A stretch of DNA of 64,000 bases, taken from positions 12,815 to 76,814 of the forward strand of contig CAZEVT010000003.1 in the NCBI GenBank assembly GCA_964515005.1, in the 5' to 3' direction. A program made the position numbers and the translations under genes. Position 1 is the stretch's first letter. Each line of letters starts with the position of its first letter. The notes under the pieces are model-generated. The model had not been told where the DNA came from. It searched no databases and saw only the letters and a list, made by a program, of their open reading frames with translations. The stretch comes from an uncultured Gammaproteobacteria bacterium. Its GTDB lineage: Bacteria > Patescibacteriota > Microgenomatia > UBA10105 > UBA927. Below are positions 42,209 through 55,596 of the stretch, in pieces.

Positions 42209-42742
42209 ATGAAGATAGGGATTGATATTAGTCAGATAGTACACGAGGGAACTGGCGTGGCAACCTATGTGCGGCGCATGGTGGAAACGCTACTGAAAAC
42301 TGATAAAAAGAATGAGTACGTTTTGTTTGGTGCATCTCTGCGGTTGCGAGGTGAATTTCAGTCATTTTACAATACATTGCCCCACGAACGGGTTCGGCTA
42401 GTTACGGTTCCCATTCCGCCGACACTGCTTGACATTCTATGGAACCGACTCCATGTTATGCCGGTTGAGAAATTTATCGGTCCCGTGGATGTATTTTGGA
42501 GCAGCGACTGGACCCAACCGCCAATGAGTGCAAAGGGGGTAACGACGATTCACGATCTTACAACCATGAAGTTTCCGAGTGAAATGGACGGACGTATCGT
42601 GCAAACACACGCACGAAGGCTTGCGTGGGTGAAAAAAGAATGTCAGGCAATTTTTTGCGACAGTGAATCTACAAAAAAAGACGTGATGAAACTTCTGGGT
42701 TTTCCGGGAGACAAATTACATGTCATATATCCAGGCATATGA
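42209..42742 (+). CDS. GT4 N-terminal-domain-only protein (half glycosyltransferase; possible remnant)
   Basis: 177 aa with MKIGIDIS...TIHDLT...VIYPGI, then a stop exactly at the GT-B inter-domain boundary. Homologous to the N-half at 51730. Confidence 0.55.
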   Translation: MKIGIDISQIVHEGTGVATYVRRMVETLLKTDKKNEYVLFGASLRLRGEFQSFYNTLPHERVRLVTVPIPPTLLDILWNRLHVMPVEKFIGPVDVFWSSDWTQPPMSAKGVTTIHDLTTMKFPSEMDGRIVQTHARRLAWVKKECQAIFCDSESTKKDVMKLLGFPGDKLHVIYPGI

Positions 42743-43845
42743 ATATTGGAATAGATGGCTATGAAGCAAATATTGAAAATCGAGTCGGAATTGGACGTTA
42801 TGCCTTTGAAATTCTTACGCATCTTTATCCGATAGCCGGGCACCATACGGTAACGGTATTTTTACCATCAAAACCTCTCCCACATATGCCGAAAGAAACA
42901 TCACGCTGGCGCTACCGGGTTGCCGGACCGGCAAACTTATGGACATTTATCGGGTTGCCCTGGGCCATGAAAGCGGTGCATCTGGATGTTATGTATTCGC
43001 CGACGCATTATATTCCTAGGTTTACGTCCGCGCCTCGGGTTATGGCGATTATGGATATTTCCTATCTCAAATATCCCGAGCTTTTTGAGGTCAAAGACCT
43101 CTATCAGCTGCAGCACTGGACGGCATATTCGGTGGCCCACGCCCGGTCGATTTTTACGATCAGCCAGGCCTCCAAAAATGATATAATAGATGCATACAAC
43201 GTACCGGCCTCCAAGGTCGTCGTGACGTATCCCGGTTTTACTATGACTACTGCGTCAAATGTCCCAAGTAAATATAAGATATCAAAAAACTATATTCTGT
43301 CGGTCGGAACAATCCAGCCTCGAAAAAACTTCACGAAGCTCATTGAAGCGTTTGCACTGTTCGTTAAGGAAAACAAGCAAAAGTTTGCAGATTTGGAGCT
43401 TGTGATCATCGGGAAAAAGGGATGGCTTTACGGAGAGATTCTTGAAGCTCCGAAAAAATACGGAGTCGCGGAGCGTGTAAAATTCTTGGATTTTGTGCCG
43501 GAATCTGACTTGCCGAGTTTTTACGCGCATGCCTTATGCTTTGCGCTTCCGAGCTTATACGAGGGATTCGGATTGACCGTTTTGGAGGCGATGGCATACA
43601 GGTGCCCGGTCGTCGTTTCCCGCGTATCCAGTTTACCGGAAATTGCGGGAAAGGCAGGGGTCTATGTAGACCCCGAGAGCGCCCAAAGCATTGCCGAGGG
43701 GCTTTTGACTGCCGTGCGGCAAAGAAATCTAGTGCAGGGAACAAGCAGGGTTCGCGTGGGGCGCGAGCAAGTCAGTAAGTTTACATGGGAAAAGGCAGCT
43801 AGGCAAACACTGGCGGTTCTTGAAGATGTAGGAGGGAAATCATGA
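42739..43845 (+). CDS. GT4 family glycosyltransferase
   Basis: Full length, with [18 protein letters not shown]. Confidence 0.85.
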
Positions 43846-48244: not shown

Positions 48245-49687
48245 ATGGGAAATCAAAAAAACAGGTTTTTCGGTGTTTGGCTTACGGCAATAGCAATCGT
48301 TGCTTTTGCTCTGCGCCTCTACCATATCAACGGCCCGGTTGCCGACTGGCACAGCTGGCGTCAGTCGGATACGGCCGCAGTTGCGCGTAATTTTCTGCGG
48401 TTTGGGATTGATCCGTTGCATCCGAGGTATGACGACCTGTCCAATATTCAGTCCGGGAAAGACAATCCCATGGGATGGCGGATGGTGGAGTTTCCCATCT
48501 ATCAGACGATAGGTGCGTTTCTTGCCCAATCATTTCCGGGACTCACCATTGAAGTTTGGTTGCGTCTGGTAACTATAGTGGCATCGGTCGGAACGACAGT
48601 ACTGGTTGGCCTTTTGGCCGCAGAATTTATTTCTCCCTTAACCGGAATTATTGCCGCGGGCATCTATGCAGTTCTTCCTTACAGCGTCTATTACGGCCGC
48701 GCGATTCTTCCGGATTCCTTTATGGTATTTTGGGGGGTATTCAGTCTGTGGCTTCTCACACGCGGGAAAGGCTATCCGTGGATTATCGCCAGCGCCGCGG
48801 CCGGGGGAGTTGCGCTTTTATCCAAACCCATGGCCGCGTTTCTTCTTATCCCTGTTCCATATATTGTATTTCGGCAGTTCGGGTTTTCCCGGCAGCTTTT
48901 TGCTCGACTCTTTATATATGCTCTGATAAGTCTCGTTCCACTTATACTTTGGCGCAGGTGGATATTGCAGTTTCCTGAAGGCATTGCCGTCAGCTCGTGG
49001 CTCTTAAACGGAAATGGCATTCGGTTCAAAGGGGCCTGGTTTCGGTGGCTATTTGCCGAGCGCATCGGCAATCTTATTCTGGGGTATTGGGGCCTCATTC
49101 CCTTCGGGCTAGGGCTTGCGGCGTCGGTTACCAAAAAAGAAGGCTGGTTTTTCCGTTTTTGGGCAATCGGGGTTTTGACCTACTTTATTGTCTTTGCCTC
49201 GGGTAACGTGCAGCACGATTATTATCAAATCCTCATCATTCCCGCCCTTGCCATATTTACGGCCAAGGGAATCGTTTCACTTCTCCAATATAAGCGGTCG
49301 GGAATGGTCGTTGCCGCATTGAGTCTTCTTGCGATGCTGGGGTTTTCCTGGTACACCATCCGCACGTACTATTGGATAAACCGCCCGGAAATCGTCGAAG
49401 CGGGGAAGGCCACGGACGCGATGATACCTCGGGACGCCAAAGTGATCGCCTCCTATAACGGGGATACGACATTCTTGTATCAGACCGGCAGGCAAGGTTG
49501 GCCTTTGGGATTTGAAATTGACAAGAAAATCGCGATGGGGGCAACGCACTATGTGACAGTTTCGCCAAGTGACAGTGACGGCGAGACCAAAGACTTGGCA
49601 AATCGGTATACCGTGCTTGTTCGGAACGAAAAATTTGCGATTATTGACCTGACGAGGCCCCGCCTACCGGCGGGCAAGCCAAAATGA
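48245..49687 (+). CDS. GT39/83-family (ArnT/PMT_2-like) membrane glycosyltransferase
   Basis: WHSWRQSDTAAVARNF motif near the first loop and about 11 TM helices. The likely start is ATG 48245, 3 nt after the upstream stop. Confidence 0.7.
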   Translation: MGNQKNRFFGVWLTAIAIVAFALRLYHINGPVADWHSWRQSDTAAVARNFLRFGIDPLHPRYDDLSNIQSGKDNPMGWRMVEFPIYQTIGAFLAQSFPGLTIEVWLRLVTIVASVGTTVLVGLLAAEFISPLTGIIAAGIYAVLPYSVYYGRAILPDSFMVFWGVFSLWLLTRGKGYPWIIASAAAGGVALLSKPMAAFLLIPVPYIVFRQFGFSRQLFARLFIYALISLVPLILWRRWILQFPEGIAVSSWLLNGNGIRFKGAWFRWLFAERIGNLILGYWGLIPFGLGLAASVTKKEGWFFRFWAIGVLTYFIVFASGNVQHDYYQILIIPALAIFTAKGIVSLLQYKRSGMVVAALSLLAMLGFSWYTIRTYYWINRPEIVEAGKATDAMIPRDAKVIASYNGDTTFLYQTGRQGWPLGFEIDKKIAMGATHYVTVSPSDSDGETKDLANRYTVLVRNEKFAIIDLTRPRLPAGKPK

Positions 49688-50874
49688 AAATTCTTTTTGT
49701 TTCAGCCGTCCTGCCGTACCCCTTGCATTCCGGGGGACAGATCCGGATATATAATCTGCTGAAACGGTTGGGGAAGAAGCACGAGATTCACCTCTATTCC
49801 TTTATCCGGTCGGAAAGTGAAAAAAAGTATCTTCCGAAGTTATCATTTTGCAAAAAGGTCGTCACGGTTCTGCGAGGCCGTGTATGGCAGCCGAAATATC
49901 TGTTCAAAGCAATAACCAGCTCGTACCCTTTGTTATGGAGTAGTTACGATAACCGGGAGATGTTTGGGCTTTTGTCAGGCGAGATTGGCCGCGACAACTA
50001 TGATCTTGTCCATATAGAGCCGGGATATGTGTTCCCGTCGCTCCCCCCGATTGATATTCCTTTGGTGGTGTCCGAACATAATATTGAGCATACGGTCTAT
50101 GCGGCATACGTGGGCACGCTGCCGAAAGTACTAGGACCCTTTCTTTCCCGTGACGTGGAAAAAATAAAACAATGGGAAGAAAAGGTCTGGAAGCGCGCCA
50201 GTCACGTGACTGCAGTCTATGAAGGCGATCAGAAGCATATTGCTTCGATTATTGATCTCAAAAGGGTGAGCATTGTTGGGAACGGCGTTGACCTTGCGCA
50301 GTTCCTTTTCCTGCCGAAAAAGACCCTTTCTCAAAAGGAATTAACATTCCTGTATGTCGGTAACTTTTTGTGGATCGAGAATATTGACGCGGTCGAGTAT
50401 CTCCTCAAGAAGGTTTGGCCCGTTATTATGCAACACTATCCGGGCGCGCGGTTGCGGATTGTGGGGAAGCATCTTCCTCTACGGCTTCGCCTCCTCGGGG
50501 GATCCCCCTCGGTTTCATTTTTTGAACATGTTGAGGAAATTTACAAGGAATATCAATCGGCCGATATTCTTCTTGCGCCCATCCGGGTCGGCGGAGGAAC
50601 AAAATATAAACTGATCGAGGCAATGGGCAGCGGCTTGCCGGTCATCACGACAAGCATTGGCGCACAGGGCATCGAACACAAAGGATCACGGGGACTCCTG
50701 GTTGCTGATTCTCCCGAAGAAGCGCTACAATCCGTGAGGACGCTTCTCGATAATACAAAGAGGATATTTTTGGTGACCAATGCGCGGTCTGTCATTGAGA
50801 AATCTTTTTCCTGGGACGTGATTGCCAAACAACTGGAAGGGGTCTGGAAGCAAACCTATGAACACGGCAACTGA
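49684..50874 (+). CDS. GT4 family glycosyltransferase
   Basis: GG.KYKLIEAMGSGLPVITT C-terminal motif and an N-terminal MKILFVS...SGGQ start. Confidence 0.8.
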   Translation: MKILFVSAVLPYPLHSGGQIRIYNLLKRLGKKHEIHLYSFIRSESEKKYLPKLSFCKKVVTVLRGRVWQPKYLFKAITSSYPLLWSSYDNREMFGLLSGEIGRDNYDLVHIEPGYVFPSLPPIDIPLVVSEHNIEHTVYAAYVGTLPKVLGPFLSRDVEKIKQWEEKVWKRASHVTAVYEGDQKHIASIIDLKRVSIVGNGVDLAQFLFLPKKTLSQKELTFLYVGNFLWIENIDAVEYLLKKVWPVIMQHYPGARLRIVGKHLPLRLRLLGGSPSVSFFEHVEEIYKEYQSADILLAPIRVGGGTKYKLIEAMGSGLPVITTSIGAQGIEHKGSRGLLVADSPEEALQSVRTLLDNTKRIFLVTNARSVIEKSFSWDVIAKQLEGVWKQTYEHGN

Positions 50875-51733
50875 ACTTTCGATCATCATCGTCAACTTTA
50901 ATACCAAAGACATCACTCGCGCATGTCTGGATTCCATACGGAAATGGTCGGAAGGGCGCCCGTGGGAAATCATCATGGTCGACAACGGCTCGACTGACGG
51001 CAGCGTCGAGATGCTCGAGAAGTACCCGGGAATTACCCTCATTTTAAACAAAAAAAATTTGGGATTTGCGAAGGCGAATAACAAAGGGATAAAGGTTGCC
51101 AAGGGAAAATATATCCTCCTTTTGAATTCCGATACAGAGATCCATCAGGATTCCGTCCAAACCATGCTGCGATTTATGGATGGGCATCTGAAGGCAGGCG
51201 CGGCTACGTGCAAGCTGGAACTCATGGACGGCACAATGGATCCTGCGTGCCACCGGGGATTTCCTACTCCCTGGGCATCATTGAGCTATCTTCTCGGACT
51301 TGAGAAACTGTTCCCAAAATCCCGGCTATTTGCCGGCTATCACCTTGGGTACAAAAATATGGATATTCCGCACCAGGTGGATTGCGTAAGCGGTGCCTTT
51401 TTTATGGCCCGCCGCGAAGCGATTGACGCGGTAGGAGTACTTGACGAAGATTATTTTTTCTATGCCGAAGATATCGACTGGGCATACCGTTTCAAGAAAA
51501 AAGGGTGGGAGATCTGGTTTAATCCGGAAGCCACGGTTCTGCATAAGAAGAAACAAAGCGGGAGGGCAAATGTACTACGATCTCGACAAATCAAAACCGA
51601 GATGTACTTCCATACGTACAACTGGCTCTTCTTTAAAAAACACTATGCGAAAAAATATGGTCCGTTGGTCTCGATCCCCGTGAGCATTTTTTATACGATC
51701 CGCTTGTTTTTGCTCAAAAACTTTTCTCTATGA
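50858..51733 (+). CDS. GT2 family glycosyltransferase
   Basis: LSIIIVNFNT...IIMVDNGSTDGS...LNSDTE. The likely start is ATG 50858. Confidence 0.85.
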   Translation: MNTATELSIIIVNFNTKDITRACLDSIRKWSEGRPWEIIMVDNGSTDGSVEMLEKYPGITLILNKKNLGFAKANNKGIKVAKGKYILLLNSDTEIHQDSVQTMLRFMDGHLKAGAATCKLELMDGTMDPACHRGFPTPWASLSYLLGLEKLFPKSRLFAGYHLGYKNMDIPHQVDCVSGAFFMARREAIDAVGVLDEDYFFYAEDIDWAYRFKKKGWEIWFNPEATVLHKKKQSGRANVLRSRQIKTEMYFHTYNWLFFKKHYAKKYGPLVSIPVSIFYTIRLFLLKNFSL

Positions 51734-52260
51734 AGATTGGCATTGATGCGCGCCTTATCGACGAAACCGGAGTTGGGAGATATATCCGGAACCTTATAGT
51801 GGAACTGGGAAAGATTGATAAGACAAATTCATACGTTGTCTTTTTACGGAAACGTTCCTACGGCGATTTCGTTGCGCCGAATGCGCGCTGGCAAAAACGG
51901 CTTGCGGACGTGCCATGGCATAGCGTCGCCGAACAATTATTTATGCCGGCGATATTTAATGGGGGGAAATTGGATCTCCTCCATGTGCCGTACTTCAACG
52001 TCCCGCTTTTGTACTTTGGGAAATTTATTGTGACGATCCATGATTTAACCGTTCTTCACGTTCATACCGGTAAGGCAAGTACCCTCCCATATTTTTTCTA
52101 TCAAATCCGGCGGTTGGGATATCATCTGTCACTACTAAAAGCGCTTTCCTGGGCAGAAAAGATTATTGCGGTGTCGGGGGCAACGAAGAAAGAAATTACC
52201 GATCATTTTGATGTGCTGCCCGCGGATATTACGGTGATTTACGAAGGGGGATCGTTATGA
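51730..52260 (+). CDS. GT4 glycosyltransferase, N-terminal half (split gene)
   Basis: 176 aa with MKIGIDAR...TIHDLT...VIYEGGSL, then a stop. A G5 tract lies at 52246-52250 just before the stop. Confidence 0.6.
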   Translation: MKIGIDARLIDETGVGRYIRNLIVELGKIDKTNSYVVFLRKRSYGDFVAPNARWQKRLADVPWHSVAEQLFMPAIFNGGKLDLLHVPYFNVPLLYFGKFIVTIHDLTVLHVHTGKASTLPYFFYQIRRLGYHLSLLKALSWAEKIIAVSGATKKEITDHFDVLPADITVIYEGGSL

Positions 52261-52775
52261 AGACGCCGTATTTTCTCTATGTTGGAAATGCATATCCTCA
52301 TAAAAACCTGGAAATTCTTATAGACGCATTTGCTGCGCTCGGCGGCGATACCACGCTTGTCCTGGTGGGAAAAGATGATTATTTTTATAAACGGCTGAAA
52401 CAAAGTGAACGAGTGAAGACGCTGGGAAACAGAATTGTTTTTAAAACGAGTGTATCGGATAGAGAACTGGGAAGTTTGTACCGCGATGCGCAAGCATTTG
52501 TATTTCCGTCGCTCATGGAAGGCTTCGGATTGCCTGCCATCGAAGCACTTGCCCATGGTTGTCCGGTCATTTGTTCGGATATACCCGTCTTTCATGAGAT
52601 TCTTGGTGAGGCAGCAACATACTTCGATCCGAACGACGTCGACCGCCTTACAAAAATTCTCGCGGTTGCCCTAGAAAAAAGACCCAGAGTCGACGGGAGT
52701 ATCGTAAAGAAGTATTCCTGGCAAAAAATGGCTAAGGAGACATTATCTGTATATGAAAATCGGTCTCGTCTATGA
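52257..52775 (+). CDS. GT4 glycosyltransferase, C-terminal half (split gene)
   Basis: 172 aa with PYFLYVGN...EGFGLPAIEALAHGCPVI. Starts 4 bp inside the preceding half's stop. Confidence 0.65.
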   Translation: MKTPYFLYVGNAYPHKNLEILIDAFAALGGDTTLVLVGKDDYFYKRLKQSERVKTLGNRIVFKTSVSDRELGSLYRDAQAFVFPSLMEGFGLPAIEALAHGCPVICSDIPVFHEILGEAATYFDPNDVDRLTKILAVALEKRPRVDGSIVKKYSWQKMAKETLSVYENRSRL

Positions 52776-53871
52776 CCGCGTAAATAAATGGGGCGGGGCT
52801 GAGCGGGTTCTTCTTGCGCTCCATGAGATTTGGCCGGAGGCGCCGCTTTATACTGCGGTCTACGACGAGAAACGTGCATCATGGGCAAAGGTATTTGAGG
52901 TTCATCCTTCGTTCCTGCAGCATATTCCCTTCGCCAAAAATAATCACGAGTTTTATCCATGGTTTACTCCCATGGCCTTTGAAACGTTTCGCTTTGACGG
53001 ATATGATGCAGTGCTTTCAGTGACGTCTGCGGAGGCTAAAAATATTATTACCAAGCCCGGTACCGTGCATATATGCTACTCCCTGACCCCGACGCGATAT
53101 CTTTGGAGCGGAGAGAAAGAATATGTAAAATATTCAGATCAAATTTCATCACACATGTTTCGTCTGTGGAGGGCGACGCTCAAACGATGGGACCAGGTTG
53201 CGGCTTCGCGACCCGATTATTATCTTGCCATTTCCAACCATGTTGCGGGTCGCATAAGGAAATACTACCAGCGGGAAACAGAAAAAGTTATCTATCCGCC
53301 GGTTGATCTTCAGATGTTTCGGCCAGAGGCCGATCAGCCTTTGGCTGATACGCCGAATGGTAAAGGCGACTATTTTCTTTGTGTTGCAAGGCTCGTGCCG
53401 TATAAACGTGTGGACCTTGTCATAGATGCGTTTAACAAATTAGGCTGGCTGCTCAAAATTATCGGCAGGGGTAGAAGCGAGTCATCGCTTCGGCAAAAGG
53501 CAAAAAAGAATATTGAATTTGTCGGTGGTGATTTGACAGATGAAGAAGTCCGTGCCTATTATCAAAAGGCCCGTGCTTTTGTGTTTGGGGGCGTCGAAGA
53601 CTTTGGTATTGTATCGCTTGAGGCTCAAGCATGCGGCAAGCCGGTGATTTGCCCGCGGGACTCCGGAATGGCGGAAACCGTGATGGAGGGCAAAACCGGA
53701 GAATTGTTCAGCGAGCAGTCAGTCGGTTCGCTTACCGCCGCGTTGCGAAAGTTTGATAAAGGGTGGTATGATAGCGACTTCTGCCGCACAAACGCAGAAA
53801 AATTTTCTATGGACCGATTTAAAAAAGAAATGAAGGAGACTGTGATGAGGTTGGCGACACATACACTATGA
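52753..53871 (+). CDS. GT4 family glycosyltransferase
   Basis: EDFGIVSLEAQACGKPVI motif, with an N-terminal MKIGLVYD...WGGAE start. Confidence 0.8.
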   Translation: MKIGLVYDRVNKWGGAERVLLALHEIWPEAPLYTAVYDEKRASWAKVFEVHPSFLQHIPFAKNNHEFYPWFTPMAFETFRFDGYDAVLSVTSAEAKNIITKPGTVHICYSLTPTRYLWSGEKEYVKYSDQISSHMFRLWRATLKRWDQVAASRPDYYLAISNHVAGRIRKYYQRETEKVIYPPVDLQMFRPEADQPLADTPNGKGDYFLCVARLVPYKRVDLVIDAFNKLGWLLKIIGRGRSESSLRQKAKKNIEFVGGDLTDEEVRAYYQKARAFVFGGVEDFGIVSLEAQACGKPVICPRDSGMAETVMEGKTGELFSEQSVGSLTAALRKFDKGWYDSDFCRTNAEKFSMDRFKKEMKETVMRLATHTL

Positions 53872-54950
53872 AGGCAATAATATTCGCAGGCGGAGTAGGC
53901 ACAAGGCTGTGGCCGCTTTCCCGAAAAAAATCCCCCAAGCAATTTGAAAAAATTGTCGGCAACAAGTCGACCCTCCAGTTGGCTGCGCAGCGTCTTCTCC
54001 CTGATTTTTCCTGGAAAGACATCTATGTTTCGACCGGCAAGCCGTACGTTGAACTGATTCAAAAACAGCTCCCCGAGGTGCCTGCCGATCAGGTTATTGG
54101 TGAACCCGAGATGCGGGATGTTGGGCCTGCCGTCGGCCTTATAACGTCGCTTCTTGTGAAAAAGTCGCCCCTTGAGCCAATGGTCATCCTTTGGAGCGAT
54201 CATCTGGTCAAAAAAGACGCGCTGTTTCGAAAAGTTCTCATGGCCGCGGGGGATATAGTGAAAAAAGAACCCGACCGCATTATTTTTGTTGCCCAAAAGC
54301 CGCGATTTGCTAGTGAAAACCTGGGATGGATTGATTATGGAAAAGAAATGCAGCGGGAAAACGGCGTTCCGTTTCACGCATTTGTCGACTTTCAATACCG
54401 CCCGGACGGGGCCACTGCCAAACGCTACTTGGAAAGCGGCCATCATGCGTGGAATCTCGGGTACTTCGTCACGACCCCGCAATTTTTGTGGAAACAATAC
54501 GAGCGGTTTGCCCCGAATGTTCACCAAGGACTATCCCGGATTGCCGATGCCTGGGGCACTACGCGATTTGAAGAAGTTCTTGCCGAGGTATACCCGACGC
54601 TTGAGAAAATCAGCTTTGACAACGCGATTCTGGAAAAACTCGACCCGGGGGGTGCGCTGGTTGTTTCTGAAAACATCGGATGGAGTGATATTGGCGCGTG
54701 GGAAGCGCTCAAGGAGGCGCTTCAGGAGGCGGAGGACAAAAATGTCACGCAGGGAAAAGTGATTCTAACCGATACGTCCGATTCGCTTGTTTATAACTAC
54801 ACGGATCAGACCATCGCAACGATTGACGTTGATGATATGCTCATCGTTACGACCGATGACGTGGTACTCGTCTGCAAGAAATCATCGGTACCCAAAATAA
54901 AAAAACTGGTCGAAAGCTTGAAAGGGACAGAGCACGAGCATCTGACATAA
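53868..54950 (+). CDS. manC: Mannose-1-phosphate guanylyltransferase (GDP-mannose pyrophosphorylase)
   Basis: AIIFAGGVGTRLWPLSR...PKQF N-terminal signature, 360 aa. Confidence 0.8.
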   Translation: MKAIIFAGGVGTRLWPLSRKKSPKQFEKIVGNKSTLQLAAQRLLPDFSWKDIYVSTGKPYVELIQKQLPEVPADQVIGEPEMRDVGPAVGLITSLLVKKSPLEPMVILWSDHLVKKDALFRKVLMAAGDIVKKEPDRIIFVAQKPRFASENLGWIDYGKEMQRENGVPFHAFVDFQYRPDGATAKRYLESGHHAWNLGYFVTTPQFLWKQYERFAPNVHQGLSRIADAWGTTRFEEVLAEVYPTLEKISFDNAILEKLDPGGALVVSENIGWSDIGAWEALKEALQEAEDKNVTQGKVILTDTSDSLVYNYTDQTIATIDVDDMLIVTTDDVVLVCKKSSVPKIKKLVESLKGTEHEHLT

Positions 54951-54957
54951 GCCTTCT

Positions 54958-55596
54958 ATGGGATATTCGTCGACGAAGCGGTGTATCGATATAGGCGGAA
55001 GTGTACTTTTGGGAGTATTCTTTTTTCCCATTTCTCTTGTGACGGCACTAGCCATTTACTTGGATTCCCCCGGACCGATATTTGCCGACACCCCCCAGCG
55101 GGTAGGAAAAGGGGGCAAACTCTTTAAGCTCTATAAATTCCGTTCGATGGTCGTCCATGCGCATGAAAAGCTGCGGAGCGACCCGAAGCTGGCGAAGCTT
55201 TACAGCGAATACAAGAAAAACAGCTACAAGCTTCTGGATGATCCGCGGGTGACCCACGTCGGCCGCTTAATCCGCAAGCACTCACTCGACGAAATTCCCC
55301 AACTTCTCAACGTCATGCGGGGCGACATGAGCCTTGTTGGGCCCCGGCCGTATTACCCGGATGAGCTCGTTGAACAGCAGCGAAAGTATCCGCATACGAA
55401 AGACTTGGTGAAAGTCGTGCTTTCGGCAAAGCCCGGTATTACCGGCCACTGGCAGGTGTCTGGGCGAAGCGAAGTTAACTTTGACAAGCGGATAAAAATG
55501 GATGCAGACTACGTCAAAAAGCGTTCGCTTCTTATGGACATATCGATTCTTCTGAAAAGCCCCTGGGCCATGATCTCGGGCAAAGGCGCGGTGTAG
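54958..55596 (+). CDS. Polyprenyl-phosphate hexose-1-phosphate transferase (bacterial sugar transferase, PglC/WbaP C-domain type)
   Basis: KRCIDI, a single TM, and [21 protein letters not shown]. Confidence 0.85.

Follow-up and report, generated by a model that had tools for sequence, protein, structure and literature searches.

A split glycosyltransferase gene and its junction

The window analysed here is a 64,000-nt stretch of contig CAZEVT010000003.1 from an uncultured bacterium, and the subject of this report is a pair of overlapping genes within it that encode, as separate open reading frames (ORFs), the two halves of a glycosyltransferase of family GT4. According to the ORF list and Pfam, the upstream gene (51730..52260, + strand) specifies a 176-aa protein (termed the N-half) that ends in ...ITVIYEGGSL and consists of a GT4 N-terminal Rossmann domain. 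The downstream gene (52257..52775, + strand) specifies a 172-aa protein (the C-half) that starts MKTPYFLYVGNAYPHKN (opening residues MKTPYFLYVGN), consists of a GT4 C-terminal Rossmann domain and finishes in the C-terminal helix ...YSWQKMAKETLSVYE (also written ...SWQKMAKETLSVYE). The two genes share the sequence ATGA (52257..52260, + strand), wherein the TGA of the N-half lies inside the ATG-A of the C-half, and the C-half is in the -1 (+2) frame relative to the N-half. Separate products are expected to carry the C-terminal peptide ...VIYEGGSL (N-half) and the N-terminal peptide MKTPYFLYVGNAYPHK (C-half), and a hypothetical fused product would contain the junction-spanning sequence ...YEGGIVMK...

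The N-domain is complete. The N-half matches PF13439 (Glyco_transf_4; E=1.3e-10, 42 bits, cut-off 28.5) over residues 14-173, which correspond to profile positions 3-165 of 170. The C-half matches PF00534 (Glycos_transf_1; E=4.4e-30, 104.9 bits, cut-off 26.4) over residues 2-142, or profile positions 14-159 of 172. In GT-B enzymes the N-domain forms the acceptor side and the C-domain the nucleotide-sugar donor side. The donor-binding domain in the C-half carries the EX7E motif E-GFGLPAI-E (52518..52544, + strand, read from the sequence), which is the signature of retaining GT4 enzymes. When the halves were joined end to end, AlphaFold2 returned a confident GT-B fold (predicted local distance difference test score 89.5, predicted template modelling score 0.83), and the top Foldseek matches of this model in the PDB were the single-chain GT4s MshA, BshA, PimA, PglA and WaaG (template modelling (TM) score 0.6-0.8, probability 1.0). 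The two domain types, the EX7E motif and the resemblance to solved GT4 structures thus place the pair in family GT4, and its predicted reaction is retaining sugar transfer from a nucleotide-sugar donor.

The sole low-confidence segment of the joined model, residues 172-177, lies between the last strand of the N-domain (167-169) and the first strand of the C-domain (181-185). Because both the Pfam domain limits and this segment fall there, the cut is located exactly at the inter-domain hinge, as an earlier note made from the letters of this DNA had proposed.

That note also drew attention to a run of five G residues (G5, 52246-52250), where one more G (G6) yields a single ORF reading ...YEGGIVMKTPYFL... 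The run lies 7 nt ahead of the N-half stop. The ORF ends and starts, the ATGA overlap, the position of G5 and the fusion by one G are all correct on re-reading. However, the C-half frame is open upstream as far as a TGA at 52209-52211, and therefore any net +1 insertion or deletion within about 46 nt would fuse the ORFs, so that G5 is not special for frame restoration. The linker between the YEG and YFL motifs comprises 7 residues in the hypothetical fusion versus 15 in the shortest fused orthologues. The shortening described previously is real, but it amounts to 8 aa by this comparison and reaches the claimed figure of about 20 aa only relative to the longest fused orthologues. Since at least eight linker residues are gone, the lesion relative to fused orthologues is a deletion of about 25 nt that is out of frame, not a 1-nt change, and the short linker does mark a real structural change.

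The split is conserved in independent copies and in relatives

A 2,187-bp contig (L001) from JGI metagenome 3300010391 is identical to window positions 51008-53194 bar one synonymous C/T difference at 52643, with G5 and the split unchanged. A more divergent locus (L168), whose halves show 76% (N-half) and 72% (C-half) amino acid identity to those of the window, has the same junction (LEGGQL-stop/MKTPYFL, with G5 and ATGA). A scan of JGI contigs gave three additional loci (L022, L040 and L055) that are all split at the same place, with N-halves 73-78% identical to that of the window and best segments 69-78% identical to the hypothetical fusion.

These copies bear on the suggestion that the gene is really fused and that its frame was broken by a homopolymer sequencing or assembly error. 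In favour of this, a single inserted G restores the frame. In contrast, the same sequence was assembled independently from another dataset with its own single-nucleotide difference (L001), the same junction occurs in the divergent L168, and about 25 nt rather than 1 nt separate the pair from fused orthologues. The split is found, moreover, in NCBI, JGI, ENA and Logan assemblies, including a complete chromosome (see below). We regard the chance of an error as negligible.

The best 120 matches to the hypothetical fusion are all fused proteins of 335-395 aa, which are at most 67% identical to it (69% in a MAFFT alignment) and, where named, belong to Candidatus Gottesmanbacteria or Patescibacteria. 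Half-length proteins are missing from these 120 because fused matches outscore them. When each half was searched separately, stand-alone proteins of both kinds were recovered: N-halves of 169-177 aa in approximately 100 clusters (at 90% identity), and C-halves of 152-190 aa, located on the same contigs, also in approximately 100 clusters. Contigs bearing both halves are up to 1.09 Mb long and come from NCBI, JGI, ENA and Logan. Among the N-half clusters, 69 end in (I/V)YEG-stop (type A1) and 21 form a more distant clade (B) ending in YE(A/S)(A/P)-stop. The stand-alone C-halves start with MKD(K/N/S)YFL, with M(K/N/S)LP, or with MKTP or MKKP.

Among GTDB species representatives, the five closest loci (L082-L085 and L098) are split, including one on the complete 995-kb chromosome OY969569.1, and the two domains share a frame in the remaining loci, whose N-domains are at most 64% identical. 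The C-half of L098 was excluded since it is partly N-masked in the stored record. The split was confirmed at the DNA level in 15 loci, and adjacent but separate ORFs for the two domains are therefore conserved across lineages. The comparison with orthologues that the earlier note had called for thus shows that they are not all fused, and that in most relatives the cut is at this same hinge.

Purifying selection acts on both halves

Because the window and L168 share one junction type (A2, see below), their divergence post-dates that split. Between them, the rates of nonsynonymous (dN) and synonymous (dS) substitution are 0.174 and 1.90 for the N-half and 0.203 and 2.32 for the C-half, which gives dN/dS of about 0.09 for each. 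In a set of 11 split loci, finite dN/dS values have medians of 0.08 (N-half) and 0.16 (C-half), and most pairs fall at 0.03-0.18. These ratios are to be read as upper-bound-like estimates because synonymous sites are saturated in most pairs (proportion of synonymous differences 0.65-0.88). The corresponding nonsynonymous proportions in type A are 0.10-0.18 (N-half) and 0.16-0.31 (C-half).

Residue conservation agrees with these ratios. Of the positions conserved in the 120 fused orthologues, the window halves keep every one of the 55 that are invariant and 124 of the 127 with conservation of at least 90%, a set in which the fused sequences themselves deviate at 0-8 positions (median 2). The two Glu residues of the EX7E motif (E264 and E272) are invariant in all 121 sequences, namely the 120 fused orthologues and the window.

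A frameshifting deletion could simply have inactivated a GT4 gene whose function is covered by complete GT4 genes nearby; the lesion is indeed a deletion of this kind, and three other complete GT4 genes are present in the window. Yet the ORFs are intact, all invariant residues and the EX7E motif are kept in the two halves, the low dN/dS at saturated synonymous sites extends from the window-L168 pair to the wider split clade, and the overlap of start and stop stays tight in every junction variant. The strength of selection and the conserved residues exclude a decaying pseudogene for the family as a whole and make one very unlikely at this locus.

Junction variants and the origin of the split

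The 15 loci examined at the DNA level display at least six junction variants, in all of which the stop codon of the N-half and the ATG of the C-half overlap. In type A1, which is carried by most loci, AT(C/T) TAT GAA GGA TAA (IYEG-stop) overlaps T ATG AAG GAT AAn (MKD(K/N/S)YFL) by 11 nt in the +1 frame, such that the Tyr-Glu codons supply the ATG of the C-half. Residue 4 of A1 C-halves is K, N or S, and once D, and the codons concerned complete the N-half stop when read in the other frame (TAA or TAG for K, N or S, and TGA for D), a pattern that reads as a dual-coding signature. Type A2 (the window and L168) has (Y/L)EGG(S/Q)L-stop/MKTPYFL with an ATGA overlap, the -1 frame and G5. The ATGA overlap recurs in type C (L169, YEGVSQ-stop/MKKPYFL) and type D (L173, HEGADKS-stop/MKEKYFL). 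A variant of A1 in L172 (A1-dup) reads YEGV-stop/MKEYNLMKDKYFL and contains an 18-nt duplication of TATGAAGGA, and type B (L163 and L166) has TYE(A/S)A-stop/M(K/S)LP(E/D)KFFL with a 14-nt overlap in the +1 frame. No G run is present in any type other than A2. The C-half starts four residues ahead of the YFL strand in every type but B, where the distance is six residues, and fused orthologues have I, V or L at the position of this start.

The distribution of G runs is informative about phase variation, by which slippage in G5 would toggle between a fused active and a split inactive enzyme. Neisseria, Campylobacter and Helicobacter are well known for glycosyltransferase genes that are switched by homopolymer tracts, and a G run 7 nt before a stop, with a G6 form that is one ORF, has the appearance of such a switch. 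However, G5 is shorter than typical contingency tracts, and no variation in tract length was seen among the window, L001 and the 25%-divergent L168. About 90 related clusters are split without a homopolymer, no fused relative with a short linker was found among the 120 orthologues, and a fused form of the window gene would be short of at least eight linker residues. The switch proposed in the earlier note is consequently highly improbable.

The same variants argue against programmed ribosomal frameshifting or transcriptional slippage as a route to a single fused polypeptide. In the window mRNA, AGGGGG is followed a few nucleotides later by UUA UGA, which resembles the +1 frameshift site of prfB, and the end-to-end joined sequence models as a normal GT-B fold. 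A prfB-like +1 shift was nevertheless rejected on frame grounds, as the C-half is in the -1 (+2) frame and such a shift would lead into the wrong frame. An X XXY YYZ heptamer is not present at the junction, and no slippery sequence leading into the downstream frame is conserved across the junction variants. Opposite shifts would be needed in different lineages, +1 in the YEG-stop type and in clade B but -1 in the window type, L169 and L173. All variants retain the ATG, at a fixed distance from the YFL strand except in clade B. We therefore consider recoding very unlikely.

Fused orthologues suggest how the junctions may have formed. In these genes a short sequence in the YEG codons recurs as a direct repeat, one base out of register, close to where the linker ends. 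In L094 and L095 the sequence is TAT GA(G/A) GGA ... ATA AAG GAT CCA TAT, and in L095 ATGAAGGA and ATAAAGGA agree at seven of eight positions. A deletion between repeats of this type would yield T ATG AAG GAT CCA TAT, from which a Pro-to-Lys/Asn change would create the TAA of type A1. For type A2, we propose that about 25 nt were lost, out of frame, by deletion between TA-CGAAGG (the Tyr-Glu-Gly codons) and CGA-AGG, which encoded Arg-Arg in the former linker. This event would have removed most of the linker and moved the C-domain to the -1 frame. An ATG codon four residues before the first C-domain strand would then overlap the TGA at which the N-half now ends. The linker of fused L097 reads CGA AGG CTC ATC ... 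CCG TAT TTC, and the untranslated C-frame upstream of the window ATG reads RRGIV, to be compared with the linker ends KKPIV and RRLI of fused genes. The 10-mer CGAAGGGGGA that contains G5 (52242..52251, + strand) is probably part of the deletion scar. Derivation of A2 by a 16-nt insertion or duplication of the A1 junction (YEG-stop/MKDK) was considered and seems less likely, for the putative duplicate is only 9/16 similar and RRGIV is ancestral-like; independent deletion from a fused ancestor fits better.

In addition, several fused orthologues among L086-L090 have short tandem peptide and DNA repeats in their linkers, such as KFQISNFKFQIS (L086), VKSQKSKVKSQK (L090) and SRITYHVSR (L087). The DNA that encodes the hinge is therefore prone to slippage in general.

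Genomic context and number of origins

The pair lies in a cluster of genes on the same strand. Upstream are a complete GT4 (49684..50874) and a GT2 (50822..51733), whose stop overlaps the N-half start by ATGA; downstream are another complete GT4 (52753..53871), a ManC-like NTP_transferase (53868..54950) and an initiating phosphoglycosyl transferase of the Bac_transf family (54958..55596), all identified by Pfam. The order PMT_2-like membrane protein, GT4, GT2, split or fused GT4, GT4, ManC-like NTP_transferase, Bac_transf and DUF4012 is shared by split loci of types A and B, by the two closest fused loci (P0001, equal to L170, and P0002, equal to L171) and by GTDB loci. Since they occupy the same slot in this conserved cluster, the split and fused forms represent the same gene and are positional orthologues. 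The cluster probably serves a polyprenyl-phosphate-linked surface glycan.

Two Logan contigs depart from this order: directly after the C-half they carry a ParE toxin/PhdYeFM antitoxin pair (L162 1074..1585 and L169 2137..2648). The cluster is rearranged in these lineages, because the window and most relatives have the GT4 and ManC genes there. Many metagenome-assembled genomes from binchicken/SRP co-assemblies with this Gottesmanbacteria-type cluster (L086, L087, L089 and others) are titled 'uncultured Gammaproteobacteria bacterium', which from gene content and nearest relatives is almost certainly a labelling artefact.

Neighbour-joining trees (200 bootstraps) were built from the N-domain and from the concatenated halves. 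The 120 fused orthologues group with every A-type split gene in a clade that excludes clade B (support 0.9-0.985), so that fused lineages lie between A and B, and this placement argues for at least two independent fissions. The A-type split genes and the seven closest fused genes form one clade (support 0.80), within which the branching order carries no resolution; monophyly of the split genes was recovered in none of the neighbour-joining trees. The fused genes P0001-P0004 are not re-fusions, as their linkers are full and ancestral-looking, so that either they are basal or fission recurred. Given the direct repeats, recurrence is plausible.

A length difference may help to order the fission events. 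In the region 52389..52440 of the window C-half (KRLKQSERVKTLGNRIVFKT), a segment of about 11 aa is kept that also occurs in L168, in a subset of A1 (C-halves of 169-178 aa) and in the fused proteins P0001 and P0002. It has been lost from most A1 C-halves (152-166 aa; ...KRLGIQPKTVTD...).

A second stand-alone GT4 N-domain is encoded elsewhere in the window (42209..42742, + strand; 177 aa, PF13439 profile positions 3-166 of 170). It ends in ...HVIYPGI at the equivalent hinge, and its identity to the remaining GT4 N-domains of the window is only 27-29%. No half-gene follows it; instead, an ATGA overlap leads into a complete 368-aa GT4 (42739..43845, + strand) whose own N-domain scores weakly. 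Its homologues are mostly full length (about 360-385 aa), although the two best representatives of 50% clusters have 182 and 193 aa and end just past YPG, and the C-domains of the full-length homologues best match that of 42739..43845 (41-45% identity). Possible readings of this gene are an orphan acceptor domain, a remnant and an N | N'-C rearrangement.

A more far-reaching idea, which we regard as unlikely, is that hinge fission of this one GT4 orthologue has recurred through linker repeats across Gottesmanbacteria and related Microgenomates (YEG-stop/MKDK, EGGSL-stop/MKTP, YEGVSQ-stop/MKKP, HEGADKS-stop/MKEK and YEAA-stop/MKLP) and has been favoured because free domains pair in several combinations, for example with the orphan at 42209..42742. 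If this were true, promiscuous domain pairing would provide more glycan linkages per gene in a tiny genome.

A probable two-subunit enzyme

The conservation of the split and the selection on both halves strongly support the third possibility raised in the earlier note, namely a real two-polypeptide GT-B enzyme. We put the probability at about 0.8 that the pair forms a heterodimeric GT-B enzyme of family GT4 that arose by gene fission at the inter-domain hinge. One operon mRNA would be translated into both halves by termination-reinitiation, for which the ATGA overlap at 52257..52260 is the likely site. The halves would then come together without a covalent link, so that the catalytic cleft is rebuilt where the acceptor-side N-domain meets the donor-side C-domain with its EX7E motif. 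In enzymes with the GT-B fold, the helix that ends the C-domain normally returns to pack against the N-domain. The enzyme would catalyse a single step in the synthesis of a polyprenyl-phosphate-linked surface glycan, by a pathway (Bac_transf, GT2, GT4s, ManC and PMT_2/Wzy-like proteins) encoded in a Gottesmanbacteria (Patescibacteria) genome. We infer assembly of the heterodimer from the GT-B architecture, from the precedent of the split enzymes Alg14/Alg13 and EpsE/EpsF, and from the auto-assembly of separately expressed GT-B domains into active enzymes (PMC10937113).

The initiation signal of the C-half was considered in this context. The 10-mer CGAAGGGGGA resembles a Shine-Dalgarno sequence 6 nt before the C-half ATG, and its predicted duplex with the anti-Shine-Dalgarno sequence (-9.1 kcal/mol) is in the top 2% of background. 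It is identical in the window and L168 despite a synonymous-site difference of about 70%, a hint of constraint at the nucleotide level. The ATGA overlap is also found at the junctions of L168, L169 and L173, and at least 15 other same-strand ORF pairs in the window overlap by exactly these four nucleotides. Overlaps of this kind in the window include 1388/1391, 2905/2908, 8229/8232, 9800/9803, 42739/42742, 49684/49687, 51730/51733 and 53868/53871.

Several points weigh against the two-subunit reading. At 45 gene starts in the window there is no enrichment of Shine-Dalgarno pairing over random positions (both medians -2.6 kcal/mol). The G5 motif is accordingly not claimed as the ribosome-binding site of the C-half, although it is kept as a possibility, and because such motifs are not enriched the case for coupling is the overlap itself. 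Taken together, the ATGA overlaps and the missing enrichment suggest that this genome relies on translational coupling rather than on Shine-Dalgarno sites. Purifying selection demonstrates the usefulness of the halves individually, not their cooperation, and coupled translation, the heterodimer, its activity and its substrate are all features that we infer from sequence comparison and modelling. A minor fused product might still be made by rare -1 slippage at the A2 junction, and the flanking complete GT4 genes could in principle compensate for the pair.

Relation to known split and single-chain glycosyltransferases

To our knowledge, GT-B enzymes are generally treated as single chains in which hinge motion drives catalysis, and the only textbook natural exception is Alg14/Alg13 (EpsE/EpsF). 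No description of a natural two-gene GT4 was found in open-access papers or in bioRxiv full text, although absence there is no proof. The hinge-split GT-B architecture is thus already known, and what is new here is its GT4 form.

This form has several implications. GT4 is one of the largest glycosyltransferase families, and the predicted heterodimeric variant is selectively maintained in more than 100 clusters, with fused positional orthologues as built-in controls and mutational scars that are legible enough to reconstruct the fission. It offers a system for the study of domain recognition by GT-B enzymes without a covalent hinge, and might be used in 'mix and match' glycosyltransferase engineering. 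It would also illustrate cleanly how, in reduced genomes of Patescibacteria, a microhomology deletion can divide a gene and leave dual-coded stop/start overlaps. Annotation pipelines would flag such pairs as frameshifted pseudogenes or fragments, and some caution is warranted. We expect moderate interest, chiefly among specialists in glycosyltransferases and genome evolution.

Among known systems, phase-variable genes such as Neisseria lgt likewise have a G run within a glycosyltransferase coding region, where a 1-nt change alters the frame. Unlike in those loci, the tract here is only 5 nt, is invariant in length across lineages and is dispensable for the split in most relatives.

With single-chain GT4s (MshA, BshA, PimA, PglA, WaaG and sucrose-phosphate synthase) the pair shares its fold (TM score up to 0.80), Pfam domains, EX7E motif and C-terminal helix. 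In those enzymes one polypeptide carries a covalent hinge, whereas the present pair has lost the hinge and its domains are encoded as separate products.

Glycosyltransferases are common among archaeal families that have undergone fusion or fission (PMC11237513). Alg14/Alg13 and EpsE/EpsF are natural split GT-B enzymes, and most members of this group are split; in prokaryotes such pairs are adjacent genes in N-then-C order, and fused and split forms coexist across lineages (PMC8993221). Engineered split GT-B enzymes, in which separate N and C chains assemble non-covalently into active enzymes ('mix and match'; PMC10937113), make the proposed mechanism physically feasible. These, however, are natural-product glycosyltransferases divided in the laboratory, whereas the present pair is a natural GT4 maintained by evolution.

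The pair resembles Alg14/Alg13 (the eukaryotic UDP-GlcNAc transferase) and the bacterial or archaeal EpsE/EpsF and Cps14F/Cps14G in that a GT-B enzyme is divided at the inter-domain boundary into an acceptor and a donor subunit. In contrast to the MurG-like Alg14/Alg13-EpsE/EpsF enzymes (PF08660 and PF04101), which are inverting, it has PF13439, PF00534 and an EX7E motif. At E of 0.01 or less the halves matched GT4-type families only, and neither PF08660 nor PF04101, so that the likeness is one of architecture and not of homology within a family. Finally, the Alg14/Alg13 split is ancient and probably of single origin, whereas the GT4 split is young: positional orthologues at 60-69% identity are still fused, several junctions exist and the deletion scars can still be read.

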